The translations under genes and the position numbers were made by a program. Shown piece after piece: positions 48,581 through 54,858 of a stretch of 64,000 nt of DNA (its first letter is position 1; each line of letters begins with the position of its first letter). The notes under the pieces are model-generated. The model made no database searches. It was not told the origin of the DNA and saw only the letters and a list, made by a program, of their open reading frames with translations. The stretch comes from Myxococcales bacterium (GTDB lineage: Bacteria > Myxococcota_A > UBA9042 > JABWCM01 > BTVJ01), in the NCBI GenBank assembly GCA_045863395.1, contig BTVJ01000018.1, positions 49,326 through 113,325 on the forward strand, read 5' to 3'.

Positions 48581-51211
48581 ATGAAGACCTGGATCAAGCT
48601 CGTCACGGCCTTCTCTGTGGCCGTCACCGGCGCCTGCAGCCAAGACGAAGACCCCAGCGGGAGCGCTGGCGGAGCGCAGGATGCGGTGACGGCAGATGCT
48701 TCGGGCACGAGCGATGTGCCGCACTCCGGCACCACGGACACGACGCCTGGCGAGGACGGCGACGGCGCCGGCAACGGGGGCGGCGCCCCTGATACATCCA
48801 CGTCGGACGCCGGGCCGAGCGATACGGGCTCCGCCACCACGGACACGGGCGGCCCCGGCGACACGGGCGCCCCAGACTCCGGCCCCGATGTCAGCGAGGA
48901 GCCGGACGTCTCCGAGGGCCCGGACGTCCAGGAGCCGGGCACCGGCTTCGATTCGGCAGAGATGATGCTCCGCATCATCGGCCCGTCCCCCCACGACTGG
49001 GCGCAGAGCGCGACCCCGTACCTGAACCTCAATGGCGTGCTGTTCGGCCACGCGGACTCGATCACCTGGATCCTCGAGGAGAGCGGGGCCACCGGCGAGA
49101 TCACCGTGGGCGCGTTCTGGTATGCCGGCGGCATCCAGCTCCAGGAGGGCACCAACACGATCTCGGTCATCGCCTCGTCCGACACGAGCGTCGCGACGGA
49201 CCAGATCAAGGTCGTCCACAACCCGACCTTCGCCTTCGACGGCCCACCGCGGCTCCTGCCGCCGGCCCTGTTCGTCGGGGAGAGCACCCAGGCCTTCGCC
49301 AACATCCGCCTGTCCACCTACAAGAACTTCGACCCCAACACGGTGCAGCTCCACATGGTCGACGCCAACGGCGAGCTGATGGAGACCAAGGGGCCGATGA
49401 AGGACAACGGCAACACGGCCTCCAACTGCGATGAGGTGGACAAGGACGGGCTGTTCTCTGCGTGCCTCACCCTCAACGTGCCCACGGAGTCTTGCGTTCA
49501 TGTTCGCGCCTCCGTTCAAGCGACGGTCGGGTTCCAGAAGTACGAGGCGTGGTCACCGACGACCAAGGTCTGTGCCGTTCCCCGCATCACGCCCCAGACC
49601 TGCCAGGCCGTGCAGACGACGCAGAAGGACGCCAAGGCCCAGTACCTGACGCTCCTCCAGACCTCGACGCCGGCCCAGGCACAGGCGGCGCTCATCGAGG
49701 ACCTCCTCAAGAGCCCCGACGTCGCCGAGGCCGGCCCCGCCACCGACGGGTACGGCGTCTGGATCCTATACGCCAACGGCCTCCTGGGCGCCCTCGACCT
49801 GAGCCCGGAGGGCCTGCGAGGCGGCGGTTGGACGACGATCGACTCCGCAGCGGTCACGGTCAGCAACGACGTCGGCTCCAAGGAGGCGACGATCCTGGCA
49901 CCCTTCAAGGCGGAGTTCGGGGACCAGGACGAGGCCATGGAGGTCGCGACGGTGCTCAAGGCGGTAGGGTGCCCCTTCTTCGGGGTCAGCGCCTTCCAGA
50001 ACGACCAGGCGTCCCTCTACCGGTTCCGCCACATGAACGACTCCGGCATCGTCGCCATCTCAAGCCATGGCGACACCTACTTCGGCGGCCTCTCCGCAGG
50101 CGCGCGGGCGAAGATCGACTGGGATCACGACGGCAGCCAGGAGGTGATCTGGACGGGAGAGAAGATCGACTGCACGCGCTTCATGCAGGCCGCAAAGTCC
50201 TGCGCAAATGACGGACTGGAGTGCGAGAACGGCGCCGGTGAGTGCCTGATCGGGAAGTCCAAGCAGTGCGTCGACTTCAAGCAGCACGACCTCCGCCGGG
50301 GCCGGGTGATCTTCGGGGACGAGGTCTACGGCATCGTGCCCGACTTCGTGACCCACCACGCCGCGGCAAAGCCGTACAGCAAGGCGGTCGTCTATCTCGG
50401 CGCATGCCGCACCCTGTGGAACGGCGGCTTCGCGGCAGCCTTCTTCGGCGCTGGCGCACAGACCGTCCTGGGCTACACCGACTACGTCACGAGCCAGTTC
50501 GCCCACGACAGAGGCCTCGAGTTCTTCCAGCGCCTGATCACGGACAAGCTGACCGCTGCCGAGGCCTACGGGGAGGGCGCGAGCGATACCGAGGCGGGCG
50601 GCGAGTTCCGGCTGTTCGGCGCGGGGAAGGCGACCGCGCGGGATGGCAGCATCGTCAACCCGTCCTTCGAGGCGGGCAACCTCACCGCGTGGTCCAAGGA
50701 CGGCGACGGCCGCGTCATCTCGCAGCTCGGTCAGACCGTGCCCGTCGACGGCAAGTTCATGGGCCTCGTGTCGTCAGGTCTGGGCTTCACCCAGGAGATC
50801 GGCGTCCTCACGCAGAAGTTCTGCATCGAGGCGGGCAAGTCCACGGCGAGCTTCTACTGGAAGTACTATAGCGAGGAGTTCCTGGAGTTCTGCGGTTCGG
50901 GCTACCAGGACCCCTTCCAGGCCTCACTGGCCAGCGATATCGGCAAGATCACCCTCGTCGACGTCAAGATCAACGACCTGTGTCCGCCGAACCAGTGCGG
51001 CGGCTGCGGCGGCAAGTACGTGGGCCTCGAGCCGTCGGACGTCAGCTTCGACCAGGGGGACGTCTACAACACACAGTGGCAGCTCGCGCAGCTCAACATC
51101 TCCGCGCTCACGGCCATCACCGGCCCCGTCACGATCAAGTTCTTCATCACCGATGCGGGCGACTCAATCTACGACACCGTCGTCCTCATCGACAAGATCG
51201 ACTTCAAGTAG
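48581..51211 (+). CDS. Large lipoprotein (876 aa): Ig-like domains, putative clan-CD (caspase/gingipain-like) domain, C-terminal beta-sandwich
   Basis: Lipobox TGAC, D/G/T stalk, 'LQEGTNTISV' Ig-like strand, 'DNG…D…DGLFS', IVAISSHG…VVYLGAC. Confidence 0.8.
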   Translation: MKTWIKLVTAFSVAVTGACSQDEDPSGSAGGAQDAVTADASGTSDVPHSGTTDTTPGEDGDGAGNGGGAPDTSTSDAGPSDTGSATTDTGGPGDTGAPDSGPDVSEEPDVSEGPDVQEPGTGFDSAEMMLRIIGPSPHDWAQSATPYLNLNGVLFGHADSITWILEESGATGEITVGAFWYAGGIQLQEGTNTISVIASSDTSVATDQIKVVHNPTFAFDGPPRLLPPALFVGESTQAFANIRLSTYKNFDPNTVQLHMVDANGELMETKGPMKDNGNTASNCDEVDKDGLFSACLTLNVPTESCVHVRASVQATVGFQKYEAWSPTTKVCAVPRITPQTCQAVQTTQKDAKAQYLTLLQTSTPAQAQAALIEDLLKSPDVAEAGPATDGYGVWILYANGLLGALDLSPEGLRGGGWTTIDSAAVTVSNDVGSKEATILAPFKAEFGDQDEAMEVATVLKAVGCPFFGVSAFQNDQASLYRFRHMNDSGIVAISSHGDTYFGGLSAGARAKIDWDHDGSQEVIWTGEKIDCTRFMQAAKSCANDGLECENGAGECLIGKSKQCVDFKQHDLRRGRVIFGDEVYGIVPDFVTHHAAAKPYSKAVVYLGACRTLWNGGFAAAFFGAGAQTVLGYTDYVTSQFAHDRGLEFFQRLITDKLTAAEAYGEGASDTEAGGEFRLFGAGKATARDGSIVNPSFEAGNLTAWSKDGDGRVISQLGQTVPVDGKFMGLVSSGLGFTQEIGVLTQKFCIEAGKSTASFYWKYYSEEFLEFCGSGYQDPFQASLASDIGKITLVDVKINDLCPPNQCGGCGGKYVGLEPSDVSFDQGDVYNTQWQLAQLNISALTAITGPVTIKFFITDAGDSIYDTVVLIDKIDFK

Positions 51212-51222
51212 GTCGGCGCGGG

Positions 51223-51246
51223 ACGCCCCGGGACACGCCCCGGGAC
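51223..51246. repeat. 12-bp tandem repeat (possible enhancer-binding-protein site)
   Basis: ACGCCCCGGGAC twice, about 120-145 nt upstream of the predicted sigma54 start. Confidence 0.5.
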
Positions 51247-51269
51247 AGTGGGGTGTGACACGGCGTGCG

Positions 51270-51296
51270 GAGGGAGGGCACCCACGGCCCTCCCTC
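51270..51296 (+). terminator. GC-rich hairpin after the 876-aa lipoprotein gene
   Basis: GAGGGAGGGC-ACCCACG-GCCCTCCCTC, a perfect 10-bp stem; no U-tract. Confidence 0.45.
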
Positions 51297-51340
51297 ATGG
51301 GATCCCAAGGACTTCCCCTCCATCGACGACCCCAGGGCCG

Positions 51341-51357
51341 TTGGCACGAAAGATGCT
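51341..51357 (+). promoter_or_regulatory. sigma54 (-24/-12) promoter
   Basis: TTGGCACGAAAGATGCT: exact GG-N10-GC, matching the TGGCACG…TGC consensus. Confidence 0.75.
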
Positions 51358-51366
51358 GCTGCACTT

Positions 51367-51544
51367 CGGTCGTGGGGCGGCGAGCCCGCTTCGAGTCCAA
51401 GACCAACCCCCTTTGCCCGGTGTCCCGTTCACCTCAAAAAAATGACGGGGCATGCTACATCGGTCGGCGTGACGCCGGGCAAGGGGGGTTCACCCATCAC
51501 ACCAGAGCGTACCGTTTGCAGGCTCTCGCCACGCTCCGTGACCG
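51367..51544 (+). ncRNA. Candidate 6S-like structured RNA (~178 nt)
   Basis: Hand-folded. Closing stem 51367-51389/51518-51544, asymmetric central bubble, 20-bp stem 51405-51424/51471-51490, apical hairpin. G-U pairs form only on the + strand. The 5' end coincides with the sigma54 TSS. Confidence 0.65.
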
Positions 51545-51590
51545 GGCGCTGGCAGGGACCCAGACCTCGCTTTCATGTACCCTTCAGCCC

Positions 51591-52025
51591 ATGGACCCCA
51601 GGCCCCCTATTGCGACGTCCCTGACCGACCTGATCGCGGTCGTGGTGCTGCCGTTGGCGCGACCGGGGGAGGTCGACCTCCTCCCGCTCGTGCACCTGGG
51701 TGTCGCCCGCCACCTGGAGCCATGGCGACCCCTTCGCGGCGCGCGCTGTGCGCCTCCCGAGGTCGCGCGCGGCGGGCGCGTCGTTCGGGCCCGCAAGGCC
51801 GCAGACGGCACCTTCCATCTCGAGCGGCGCTATGACGACGTGATCGAGCTGTTGACCCAGCCCCTGCCGGCGGAGGCGCTCCTGAACGCGCTGTGGGCCC
51901 TGATCGCCCACGGGCTGCGCCGTGCAGGTCCCGACATCCGCGCGCTGCGCGTGCTTGCGCGCCTGGAGGCCCACGAGGACGAGCGGGTTCGAGCCGAAGC
52001 GCGCGCGGCGGCCCTCAAGCTGTAG
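51591..52025 (+). CDS. Hypothetical protein (144 aa)
   Basis: ATG 51591, GC-rich third positions, fills the gap before efp; no recognised motif. Confidence 0.5.
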   Translation: MDPRPPIATSLTDLIAVVVLPLARPGEVDLLPLVHLGVARHLEPWRPLRGARCAPPEVARGGRVVRARKAADGTFHLERRYDDVIELLTQPLPAEALLNALWALIAHGLRRAGPDIRALRVLARLEAHEDERVRAEARAAALKL

Positions 52026-52065
52026 CGGGGGTGGAGGCATGTGCCGTCGTGGGCCACGCCCGAGG

Positions 52066-52632
52066 CTACTTCGCGCGCTCCAGGTACCGCCCGTCTCGCG
52101 TGTCCACACGGATGCGCTCCCCCTGCTCGAGGAACAGCGGGACCTGGACCCGGAGGCCCGTCTCGACCACCGCCTCCTTCGTCACGGCGGTCACCGTGTC
52201 GCCCTTGATGCCGGGGTCGCACTGCGTGATCTCGTAGACCGCGGTGTTCGGGAGCTCCAGGCCCACGGGGCGCTCATTGTAGAAGACCAGCCGCACCTCC
52301 ATGTTCTCCGTGAGGTACAGCGCTTGATCCCCCAACAGGTCGGCGTCCAGCGGCACTTGATCGTAGGTGGCGCTGTCGAGGAAGTAGTAGTGCTCGCCTT
52401 CCACGTACAGGAACTGGCCGTTGCGCATCTCGATGTCGGGCTCACGGAACTTCTCGCCGGACTTGAAAGTGACCGCCTGGAACTGGCCGGTCAGGACGTT
52501 CTTCACCTTGGCCTTCACGAGGGTGGCCCCGCCGCGGGCAGAGGGGCTCTGCGTCGTGGAGTCGAGGACCACCCACGGCTCGCCGTTCCACTCGAAGCGC
52601 TGGCCCTTCTTGAAGTCCGCTGTAGAGATCAT
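52066..52632 (-). CDS. yeiP: Elongation factor P-like protein EfpL/YeiP
   Basis: EF-P fold (KGDTV..VTK.A..ETG..VQVPLF…VDTRDG.Y) with loop SPSARGGA instead of PGKG. Confidence 0.85.
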   Translation of the reverse strand: MISTADFKKGQRFEWNGEPWVVLDSTTQSPSARGGATLVKAKVKNVLTGQFQAVTFKSGEKFREPDIEMRNGQFLYVEGEHYYFLDSATYDQVPLDADLLGDQALYLTENMEVRLVFYNERPVGLELPNTAVYEITQCDPGIKGDTVTAVTKEAVVETGLRVQVPLFLEQGERIRVDTRDGRYLERAK

Positions 52633-52749: not shown

Positions 52750-54858
52750 TCAGCGGCCGCGACGGGACGGAGCCTGGGTCCGCGCGCCCGTGCTCCGCGA
52801 GGGGGCCTGCTGCTTCGGACGGGACTGCTGCGGCGCGCTCGCCGCGGGTCGCGGCGCGCTGTGGGACGGCATGGTCGCAGAGCGCGTGGGCGCTGAGGAG
52901 CGAGCTGGCGCCGCCGCGGGGCGATGCGACGAGGGCGCCGAAGCTGCCGGCGAGGTCGCATGCCGCTGCGGCGTGGGCTGTGAGGCCGCGGCGCGGGGCG
53001 CCGCCCACGGCGTCGAGGAGCGGCTGCTGGTGGACGGCTGCACGGCCGCGCGGGGCGTCGCCGGCGTCGAGGAGCGACCGCTGGTGTGCGGCTGCACGGC
53101 TGCGCGGGGCGCCGGAGCCGTGGCCTTCGCCGCGGGTGCATGGGACCGGGCGCCCGCCGCGGGCTGTGATGCCTCACGGTGCGAGGTCGGCGCCGTGCTG
53201 GTGCCACGCGGGGACGGCGAGCTGGACCGCGGCGCCTGGTTGGCGGTGCTCGGGGCCGCACGCTCCGTCGTCGACCGCCCCCAGTCGCCGGTCCCGCGGG
53301 AGGGCGTCGCCTTGGACGGCTCCCGGGCAGCTCCCTGGTGCGCCGCCGCCGGGGCCTTGTTGCTGGGACCGCCGGCTCGAACCGCAGGAGCGCCGCGATC
53401 CGACTGCCTGGCATCAGCGGCGGGGCGCGTGTCCCGCGTCGGAGAGATCGTCGGCGCGTGTCGCTCGGAGGTGCTCGACCGATGGGGCGCCACTGCGCCG
53501 CGGCTGTCCGCCCTCGACGGGTCGACCGGTGCGCCGCGGTGAGCTACCGCAGTCCCCTTGCCGCGTGCCGGGGACTCCGAAGCGCGTGTGGCCGAGTGGG
53601 CAGCACGCGACGCCTCCGATGCACCGCGCGGAGCTGCGTTCATTGCCGTGCGCGTCGGGGACGCGGCCTCTACGGCTGGCCGTCCACCGGCCGCGTGGGC
53701 GGCGCGCGACGGGTTCGGCGCGGCCTGGGCACGGTCGTAACCTGCGGACGCCGTCGCCGCTGGGCGGTTGGCGCCGGAGGTCCCGTGCGCGGCCTTCGCG
53801 TACTTGGCGCGGTCGGGCGTCGAGTGCCGTACCTTGTCAGTGGCACCCGGGACGTACTTCGCATAGGCCGGCTGCTTCGCCGCCTTCTTCGCGGCGGGAG
53901 GCGCGCCGTGCGCGTAGTGGACTGGTGCGGCCTTGGCGCCAGGCGACGCGTAGTAGGGCTTCTTGTACCCGTAGCCGCCCGCCGGGGCCGAACCCTTCGC
54001 CCAATAGCCCTTCTTGTAGCCTTTGCCCGCGTAGTGCCCGTCCACCCAGTGGTAGCCGTGCTTGTGGGCGGGGCGCCAGTGGCCCGACACCCAGTAGCCG
54101 TTGTGCACGTAGCCGGGCGCCCAGACCATGCCGTGGACGTGGGTCAGCGGGGTCCAACAGCCCCAGTACCACATGCCGTGGGAGTAGTAGCCCGACGTCC
54201 AGGTGAAGCCCACGTAGACCGACGGCCGCCAGAAGCCCATCACCCAGTAGCCATCATAGCCGACGTGTCCGGGGACCCAGGCGTAGCCAGCCTGCGTGGA
54301 CGCGGGGACCCAGTCGCCGAAGTAATAGACGCCGCCCGACCAGTAGGGGTCGACCCAGGTGTACCCCGGGACCGCGACCGGGCGGTAGTAGTCGTCGATC
54401 CAGTAGCGGTCCGCGCCAACGGTTCCGTAGACGACCGTGTAGCCGGACGGCGCGCCTCCGATGGGCTCCCAGTGCCCCCACACCCACACGCCGCCAACAT
54501 AGCGGCCGGGCACCCAGACCCAACCCGAACGCTCCTGCTTGCGCCAGAAGCCCTGCTGGTGGACACCGTCGTCGCCGCGGTGACCGTACTCCCAGACGTA
54601 GCCGGGCTCCGTCTGCTCCAGGGGCTCCCAGTGGGGCTCGACGAAGGCACCGCTCTCATCGTAGTAGGCGTCGACCCAGGCGTAGCCGGGCTCCTCGGCC
54701 TTGCGCCAGAAGCCGTCGACCATCTCACCATCGGGGGTTGCGTATCCGTCGACCCAGACGTACTCGGCGCCCGGGGAGGGCACCGTCTGGGCTCGACCGT
54801 CCGAGCCGGCTGCGAGGAGGGCAGCGGCGAGAAGTGCGCAAGCAAATGTGCGTGTCAT
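52750..54858 (-). CDS. Secreted YXWGXW (WXXGXW)-repeat protein with long low-complexity tail
   Basis: Signal peptide, many GY.WV.G.W units, Ala/Arg/Pro/Ser tail. SD AAGGAG. Confidence 0.85.
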   Translation of the reverse strand: MTRTFACALLAAALLAAGSDGRAQTVPSPGAEYVWVDGYATPDGEMVDGFWRKAEEPGYAWVDAYYDESGAFVEPHWEPLEQTEPGYVWEYGHRGDDGVHQQGFWRKQERSGWVWVPGRYVGGVWVWGHWEPIGGAPSGYTVVYGTVGADRYWIDDYYRPVAVPGYTWVDPYWSGGVYYFGDWVPASTQAGYAWVPGHVGYDGYWVMGFWRPSVYVGFTWTSGYYSHGMWYWGCWTPLTHVHGMVWAPGYVHNGYWVSGHWRPAHKHGYHWVDGHYAGKGYKKGYWAKGSAPAGGYGYKKPYYASPGAKAAPVHYAHGAPPAAKKAAKQPAYAKYVPGATDKVRHSTPDRAKYAKAAHGTSGANRPAATASAGYDRAQAAPNPSRAAHAAGGRPAVEAASPTRTAMNAAPRGASEASRAAHSATRASESPARGKGTAVAHRGAPVDPSRADSRGAVAPHRSSTSERHAPTISPTRDTRPAADARQSDRGAPAVRAGGPSNKAPAAAHQGAAREPSKATPSRGTGDWGRSTTERAAPSTANQAPRSSSPSPRGTSTAPTSHREASQPAAGARSHAPAAKATAPAPRAAVQPHTSGRSSTPATPRAAVQPSTSSRSSTPWAAPRAAASQPTPQRHATSPAASAPSSHRPAAAPARSSAPTRSATMPSHSAPRPAASAPQQSRPKQQAPSRSTGARTQAPSRRGR

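Follow-up and report, generated by a model that had tools for sequence, protein, structure and literature searches.

A predicted sigma54-associated, closed rod-shaped RNA in a Myxococcales genome

The locus

The window, meaning the whole 64,000-nt stretch of DNA analysed here, lies on contig C18 of a Myxococcales genome of 8.77 Mb with 70.9% G+C and a completeness of 97%. The element under study sits within a 379-nt gap between a gene for an 876-aa protein and a gene for a 144-aa protein, with the convergent efp gene behind the latter. The features of the locus are as follows:

48581..51211, + strand: upstream gene, 876 aa, product probably secreted; no Pfam family
51223..51246, + strand: exact 12-bp head-to-tail repeat, a possible activator site, at about -145 to -122 from the predicted start
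51270..51296, + strand: 10-bp hairpin without a U-tract, upstream of the promoter
51342..51356, + strand: sigma54 -24/-12 motif; predicted +1 at 51368
51367..51544, + strand: predicted closed rod RNA, 178 nt, from fold prediction; no Rfam match, single copy
51367..51389, + strand: 5' strand of the closing stem, partner 51518-51544; 12 firm pairs, then bulged
51390..51404, + strand: 5' strand of the bubble, 15 nt (fold prediction)
51405..51490, + strand: inner arm, an uninterrupted 19-bp helix (51405-51423/51472-51490) with a two-hairpin apex, p 0.77-1.0
51428..51443, + strand: apical loop with a UCACCUC anti-Shine-Dalgarno word and an A7 run; proposed pairing site
51491..51517, + strand: 3' strand of the bubble, 27 nt, C/A-rich, with a weak hairpin at 51505-51517 (fold prediction)
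51578..51583, + strand: TAnnnT box 7 nt before the ATG of the 144-aa gene, likely a leaderless sigma70-type promoter; weak -35 at 51555-51560
51591..52025, + strand: 144-aa gene of a rare family, with a HEAT-like C-terminus as a lead only; no Pfam match
52066..52632, - strand: efp (elongation factor P), convergent; three EF-P Pfam domains

The C-terminal part (303 aa) of the 876-aa protein has matches in 103 of 107 class genomes including the host, at identities of up to 59% and often in several copies; by these matches the protein is a member of a class-wide family without a name. Behind efp, the window encodes a 702-aa protein (52750-54858, - strand) with many short Trp/Gly/Tyr-rich repeats, a long Pro/Ala/Ser-rich tail and no Pfam match.

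Promoter and upstream elements

The initial annotation described a consensus -24/-12 promoter at 51341-51357. The string is present there; its -12 box reads ATGC, one base off TTGC. It is the sole match to TGGCACG-N4-WTGC in the window, where 0.10 would be expected. Genome-wide, the strict sigma54 pattern has 22 sites, compared with 2 for the reversed pattern and 1-3 for patterns with a changed spacer, and most sigma54 matches in the host genome are therefore probably real. The genome carries rpoN and 44 GAFTGA-like activator motifs. The rod begins at -1 or +1 relative to the predicted start.

The 12-bp tandem repeat (51223-51246) proposed as an enhancer-distance element is present. Exact tandem repeats are rare, occurring in 1 of 32 sigma54 upstream regions and in 15 of 1812 controls, and nothing connects this one with an activator. 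The hairpin said to insulate the promoter from upstream is also there (51270-51296), with 10 bp, but it has no U-tract and is not terminator-like; its probable role is to stabilise the 3' end of the upstream gene's transcript or to act as a pause site there. No terminator-like site was seen in 51150-52100, the rod, like the hairpin, having no U-tract. Behind homologues of the upstream gene, none of 19 loci had a sigma54 motif, the full 700 nt being read at 17 of them.

Predicted fold of the rod

The rod folds at -90.7 kcal/mol (z -3.74), with none of 200 shuffles as good, and the + strand (z -4.3) folds better than the - strand (z -2.0). All 13 proposed pairs of the closing stem (51367-51379/51532-51544) are standard; positions 51367-51378 pair with probabilities of 0.9-1.0 and the thirteenth pair is weak (p 0.32). 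The asymmetric bubble likewise has the strands first described, 15 nt (51390-51404) and 27 nt (51491-51517), each able to form a weak hairpin (p ~0.5-0.6). For the inner stem, claimed as 20 bp (51405-51424/51471-51490), all 20 pairs are standard, but the ensemble helix has 19. The apex was drawn as one hairpin with an A7 loop; two hairpins are likelier (p ~0.85), although the claimed fold is merely 0.4 kcal/mol worse. A loop of 11-14 nt contains both the A7 run (51436-51442) and UCACCUC. The five wobble pairs of the two long stems are G-U on the + strand, as had been noted, and the rod as a whole has 10 G-U pairs versus 1 A-C mismatch on that strand.

The closing stem depends on where the transcript ends, with p 0.96 for an end at 51590, 0.02 at 51650 and 0.47 at 51800. 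In these folding models, it is reliable only for transcripts ending by 51590. The inner helix is predicted to persist at p 1.0 in longer transcripts.

Copy number, coding status and homologue searches

The rod is single-copy in the host genome. A multi-copy, MITE-like repeat, raised at the outset as the alternative, is not what lies here: there is one copy, its arms are wobble-rich, and the 14-nt flanks carry no duplicated target. With a real motif class and a rod at the predicted +1, the locus can fairly be read as encoding a structured, non-coding RNA driven by sigma54.

A stop-free frame crosses the rod into the 144-aa gene, and relatives of the 144-aa protein start level with its ATG. A 60-codon frame that opens at an ATG in the apex lacks an SD, and its GC3 is 0.65, compared with 0.86 for the 144-aa gene. 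Judged by these features, the rod is non-coding.

Rfam gave no match in the window, nor around the rod at E values up to 10. BLAST of the rod against 60 relatives returned seven short hits in six genomes, none at a sigma54 site or similarly folded and two of them sucD codons; against 400 genomes of the phylum, it returned eight short hits, five in sucD-like genes, one promoter-only and two otherwise unrelated. The class set comprised 106 genomes, none other from the host's family. A covariance model built from the single sequence, of low sensitivity with 17-24 candidates scored per genome, matched in none of the 106 genomes of the class and none of 149 from the phylum. A GTDB scan for the promoter plus the 5' end led to 100 folded stretches, 80 of them model-scored, and none was homologous. 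Viral contigs held no rod homologue. Loci of the 144-aa family turned up in none of the 106 class genomes, none of the 400 from the phylum and none of the GTDB or JGI scans. The empty homologue searches are weak evidence against function, since the set holds no close genome. In the literature, where subscription journals were scantly covered, no description of such an RNA was found. By these searches the rod is an uncatalogued orphan prediction.

The downstream gene and its promoter

The 144-aa protein has a relative with 62% identity and belongs to a set of seven proteins by profile; together with its GC3, this marks the ORF as a real gene of a rare family on sequence grounds. Before the ATG of 3024 SD-less host genes, a set that rests on crude gene calls, TAnnnT occurs 39, 40 and 45 times at gaps of 6, 7 and 8 nt, 19 times at gap 9 and 1-8 times elsewhere. 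Leaderless genes thus appear common in the host: about 125 SD-less genes carry TAnnnT at a distance of 5-8 nt from the ATG, and many of these also show a TTGAC-like -35. The 144-aa gene, which lacks an SD, carries TAnnnT at gap 7; its -35 is weak, at the 13th percentile among 124 leaderless promoters. The gene seems to have its own leaderless promoter, and the rod may stand alone. The box favours the rod as a separate unit, with tandem promoters still compatible.

RNA-run contigs and strain variation

Twenty RNA runs from 10 studies contain part of the 2.1-kb stretch around the rod, and those holding most of it come from sludge and wastewater. Four of the 20 (X7, X18, X19 and X20), picked for their small shares, were examined, all as contigs and with no DNA run among them. 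Pieces of the rod occur in contigs of X7, X19 and X20, and none in X18. Two contigs extend from the rod into the ORF (51387-51857 in X7 and 51426-51614 in X20). Contigs of this kind are silent on level, strand and ends; since X7 covers most of the stretch, DNA is a possible source. No discrete rod transcript is visible in the contigs of the four runs. A gap in X7 (51364-51386) and the end of a piece in X19 (51390) both lie near the predicted start, but are not evidence for it, as there is no DNA run for comparison.

The contigs bear on one alternative, namely that the 144-aa gene has a second, sigma54-driven mRNA whose long 5' leader is the rod, which would act only in cis as a stabiliser or as an RNase III-cut structure. 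We consider this unlikely, while giving it some weight. The rod and the gene share a strand with no terminator, the X7 and X20 contigs span the rod and the start of the ORF, and all three sister rods described below have a same-strand gene behind them. Against it, the ORF has a leaderless-type box in place of an SD, the rod ends 46 nt short of the ATG, and a contig across both parts, which may be DNA, proves no single transcript.

The X7 contigs come from a related strain, for which 31 of 37 differences were listed. Two of 158 covered rod bases differ, versus 22 differences listed in the block at 51262-51317 upstream, a comparison weakened by the counts coming from different X7 contigs and by the ORF part of the rod's own contig differing at 6 of 267. 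The 12-bp repeat has no change among the differences listed. In the upstream hairpin, the pair 51275/51291, assigned by hand, is changed on both sides with pairing kept. Both rod substitutions (51483 and 51538) fall on G-U pairs; the one at 51483, also present in X19, gives a mismatch, and the partner of 51538 is uncovered. No compensatory change was seen in the rod in the covered strain contigs. The X19 contig has 2 nt missing at 51435, at the A run of the apical loop. These changes are compatible with a tolerant structure.

Sigma54-anchored rods elsewhere in the host genome

Rods were defined by a closing helix of at least 10 bp, a start between positions -2 and +4 relative to the predicted +1, and z <= -3.5, criteria set after the rods were seen; an earlier relaxed score over 285 motif matches had been too noisy. 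Of 32 strict sigma54 sites, 30 have enough downstream sequence, and four of these carry a closed rod. Control positions with a rod numbered 11 of 3000 and 19 of 2500 (0.4-0.8%). Leaving the window rod out, 3 of 29 sites remain (binomial P 1.7e-4 and 1.4e-3 against the two controls), and under a crude non-coding mask, which removes the C1 rod, 3 of 14. The layout is rare in relatives, with 1 of 128 sites (Fisher P 0.02), these sites being drawn from 20 loci of genome G001 and 109 of 240 non-host matches of a filtered pattern. The four rods are unrelated in sequence and each is single-copy. When the four were compared with one another, with two further sigma54 RNAs and with 6S, none of the pairs that included the window rod scored above shuffles (best 15 of 300). 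The C1 rod against 6S reached 1 of 300 in one of 42 tests, and it has no score with 6S models.

The first sister (C71:22772-22951, - strand) spans 180 nt with z -7.2 and a sigma54 motif, between genes for an ArsA-type ATPase and an M16 peptidase; relatives have 29 loci homologous to that of the M16 peptidase, and the rod was missing at all of them, although at two there was little upstream sequence. In the apex of this sister, an SD and an ATG open a short Arg-rich frame. The second (C1:181905-182040, - strand) has a sigma54 motif and spans 136 nt before an M48 peptidase gene, whose likely ATG is preceded by a TAnnnT box at a distance of 8 nt. The third (C5:130260-130414, - strand), also with a sigma54 motif, is a closed structure of 155 nt, inside which lies a near-consensus sigma70 promoter for the next gene. 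None of the three has a bubble comparable to that of the window rod, and no exposed anti-SD word was noticed in them by eye.

Other sigma54 loci in the genome are laid out differently. A site on C38 (motif 59802, - strand) likely drives a stand-alone sRNA, about 135 nt long, that has two anti-SD loops and ends in a terminator-like hairpin; a gene named by eye as cytidine-deaminase-like converges on it. A GACA-N4-TGTC site is common to this locus (at -115) and the C1 rod (at -153), and there are 47 such sites genome-wide. On C54 (motif 44021, - strand), a sigma54-like motif precedes a series of hairpins spanning about 190 nt, which leads into a strong intrinsic terminator; a CHAT-domain gene converges on this locus. 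Very strong palindromes between genes (z -8 to -16) occur on C3 near 95440 and 177237, on C2 near 89134 and on C121 near 4300; those on C2 and C3, which have a flanking word in common, are probably a repeat family.

The absence of any RNA function, in which case the sigma54 promoter would serve the next gene and the hairpin behind it would be a decayed mobile element or a product of chance, appears distinctly unlikely to us. For it speak the empty homologue searches, the absence of the C71 sister from relatives' loci, the far stronger folded intergenic elements of the same genome (z to -16) and the strain changes that do not restore pairs. Against it stand the single copy, the flanks without a visible target duplication, the excess of G-U pairs over A-C mismatches on the + strand, the four rods that start at the predicted +1 and, weakly, the low number of strain differences in the rod relative to the 56-nt upstream block.

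A bolder reading, that the window rod and its three sisters form an undescribed myxobacterial RNA class defined not by sequence but by architecture (a sigma54 start, a closing stem joining the 5' and 3' ends, and no terminator), with the rod as a sigma54-switched RNA polymerase decoy that arose apart from 6S, is speculative and in our judgement very doubtful. If it were true, a signal could be converted by a single enhancer-binding protein into a shift of transcription on a global scale. A layout that recurs four times with unrelated sequences is missed by sequence-based searches and by Rfam, and it offers a simple search rule, a sigma54 motif plus a closing stem at +1. A looser rule (motif plus a short 5' word) yielded a conserved, uncatalogued family in 16 related genomes. 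Few regulatory RNAs have been characterised in myxobacteria, where Hfq is missing and reliance on sigma54 activators is heavy.

Comparison with 6S RNA

The initial annotation suggested a divergent or second 6S RNA. This did not hold up. The host genome has one canonical ssrS/6S locus (C14:69618-69805, 61.5 bits), the sole RF00013 match at E up to 1, and of 61 genomes of the class, 48 have exactly one canonical 6S. Twenty-five class 6S RNAs served to build an HMM and a covariance model. The HMM matches the C14 locus alone in the host genome; the covariance model gives 137 bits for C14, a training sequence, and at most 4.4 bits for fragments of the rod's + strand. RF00013 likewise leaves the rod unscored. 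Four 6S words from the apical arm and the bubble edge occur in 19, 24, 23 and 21 of the 25 class 6S RNAs and none on the + strand of the rod, three being missing on both strands. The longest predicted helix is 6-13 bp in all 25, versus 19 bp uninterrupted in the rod; the bubble lies 23 nt from the rod end versus about 44 nt in the host's canonical 6S; and none of 30 class 6S loci has a sigma54 motif. By sequence and model scores, the rod is not a member of the 6S family.

An RNA polymerase decoy in the manner of 6S or Ms1, in which the bubble would mimic an open promoter and bind the core, sigma70 or sigma54 form, could still be imagined outside that family. A length of 178 nt, closed ends and an asymmetric bubble between two helices suit it; according to PMC8876501, two short arms flanking a bubble can sustain the 6S cycle in vitro, and Ms1 binds RNA polymerase yet falls outside the 6S family, according to PMC9130861. 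However, the rod has no score with any 6S model, its long unbroken helix contrasts with 6S arms, which are broken up by loops and bulges (PMC8876501), its bubble is placed differently, sigma54 motifs are missing at class 6S loci, and the three sisters have no comparable bubble. We regard such a decoy as improbable. Should the rod bind RNA polymerase, the host would have a second decoy, switched by a signal, in addition to its canonical 6S.

A proposed sRNA pairing with ribosome-binding sites

The motif, the fold, the single copy, the non-coding status, the anti-SD word in an open loop and the promoter box of the next gene are computed observations. The reading that we favour, tentatively and at somewhat less than even odds, is that of a processed, Hfq-independent, stand-alone sigma54 sRNA that pairs with ribosome-binding sites through its anti-SD apical loop, in the manner of Pxr. 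Transcription from the promoter, the ends, the processing and every target-pairing step are inferred. An enhancer-binding activator would open the sigma54 promoter, and transcription would run from about 51368 onward without an intrinsic terminator. The 5' end would pair with 51532-51544, and 3' exonucleases would trim the precursor to the closing stem, leaving a stable rod about 178 nt long, from which RNase III may release the apex by cleavage in the 19-bp helix. The exposed apical loop would then pair with Shine-Dalgarno sequences without Hfq and repress translation, as has been reported of Pxr and MXnc1 in Myxococcus xanthus.

ACCUC and the A run in the apical loop are at least 0.8 unpaired. 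Against the SD zones of 5214 genes, the loop pairs with 143 at -11 kcal/mol or better, while 40 shuffles gave 0-47; a first, wider scan showed a small excess, with 52 versus 2-41 for shuffles at -15 kcal/mol and 348 versus 64-441 at -12. The anti-SD word was noticed after the fact and is one of four segments tested, the bubble strands and the second apical hairpin showing no pairing with translation-start regions above shuffles. No specific target stands out among the 5214 start regions. Hfq was not found in any of four genomes, and the host genome has RNase III and two 3'-5' exonuclease domains, which may be those of RNase D or of polymerase I.

The stand-alone sRNA reading is favoured by the real motif class, rpoN and the activator motifs, the rod at +1 and the recurrence of this layout, the + strand fold, the leaderless-type box of the next gene and the matching starts of its homologues, the loop excess, the missing Hfq, the RNases, the C38 sigma54 locus with its anti-SD loops and terminator, and the precedent of Pxr and MXnc1. 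It is weakened by the lack of a homologue and of a discrete transcript, the two contigs that run into the ORF, the post hoc word and its small excess in the first scan, the lack of a specific target, the sisters without that word, the rod criteria set after the fact, the weak -35 of the next gene and the two strain substitutions, which leave G-U pairs unrepaired as far as covered. If expressed, the rod would be a terminator-less, end-paired variant of a sigma54 sRNA.

Sigma54-driven protein sponges such as CrcZ are known, and the large C/A-rich single strands on stable helices would also suit a scaffold or sponge for another RNA-binding protein or a small RNA. This we hold to be very improbable. 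The rod has no GGA and is therefore not CsrB/RsmZ-like, and Hfq and Ro60/TROVE are missing. In 18 tests, its three open segments were paired with 6S and with five further sigma54 RNAs, and no result rose clearly above shuffles (best 2 of 60). Retron, attC, CsrB and CrcZ readings were dropped on anatomy.

Comparison with known systems

Bacterial Y RNAs of the rsr-yrl-rtcB type are sigma54-driven. A Y RNA was rejected for the rod, with no TROVE match in the host genome, which is 97% complete, and no tRNA call on contig C18.

The rod resembles 6S (RF00013) in its length of about 180 nt and, by prediction, in its paired 5' and 3' ends and internal bubble, with no terminator of its own. It is unlike 6S in its 19-bp unbroken helix, branched apex, short closing arm, sigma54 promoter and lack of 6S words. 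Ms1 of Actinobacteria offers a parallel as a 6S-shaped RNA outside the 6S family, but as described in PMC9130861 it is about 220-300 nt long, has extra terminal hairpins and binds core polymerase; the rod has no Rfam match.

An uncatalogued sRNA family, R2, of about 95 nt occurs in 16 of 107 class genomes from six families, with one copy each (for example, G004:C39:27958-28056 and G045:C1:3190755-3190858, both - strand). All 16 have a sigma54 motif. The RNA consists of a closing stem and two hairpins, whose C/A-rich loops are nearly invariant, and a terminator-like hairpin usually follows; the upstream gene is the same in nearly all members. Five R2 loci gave no Rfam match, and eight sequences showed no compensatory change. 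R2 shares with the rod the bacterial class, the sigma54 motif, a closing stem at +1 with GGUCG and C/A-rich single strands, whereas its length, its two short hairpins and its usual terminator-like hairpin set it apart. Membership of the rod in R2, suggested by a likeness seen by eye, was rejected: the rod scores at most 4.7 bits, it does not match the invariant R2 loops, and its outer parts do no better than shuffles (81 and 408 of 500). R2 itself has no match in the host genome. A Myxococcota bin (JAWOLJ010000003.1) has a sigma54 motif followed by a stem-rich RNA of about 140 nt and a terminator-like hairpin; its first bases equal those of the rod because the pattern selected them, and the rod model gives it no score.

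Pxr of Myxococcus xanthus is sigma54-driven (PMC5568312 and PMC5684412) and trimmed by RNase D (PMC10217877). As an RNA, the rod is not Pxr: the best match of an SL1 probe in 51341-51600 has 11 of 26 mismatches, and the genome has no site with six or fewer. Pxr consists of three (or two) stem-loops in a row behind the NtrC-like pxrR/nla19, whereas the rod is one closed structure behind a gene without a Pfam match. According to bioRxiv 2025.09.11.675593, Pxr and MXnc1 bind near SD sites in M. xanthus, MXnc1 being an intergenic myxobacterial sRNA candidate that binds near the SD of several mRNAs. With Pxr, the rod shares a myxobacterial, Hfq-less host, a sigma54 promoter (present in the rod as a motif) and a C-rich loop; the processing shown for Pxr would, by inference, extend to the rod.
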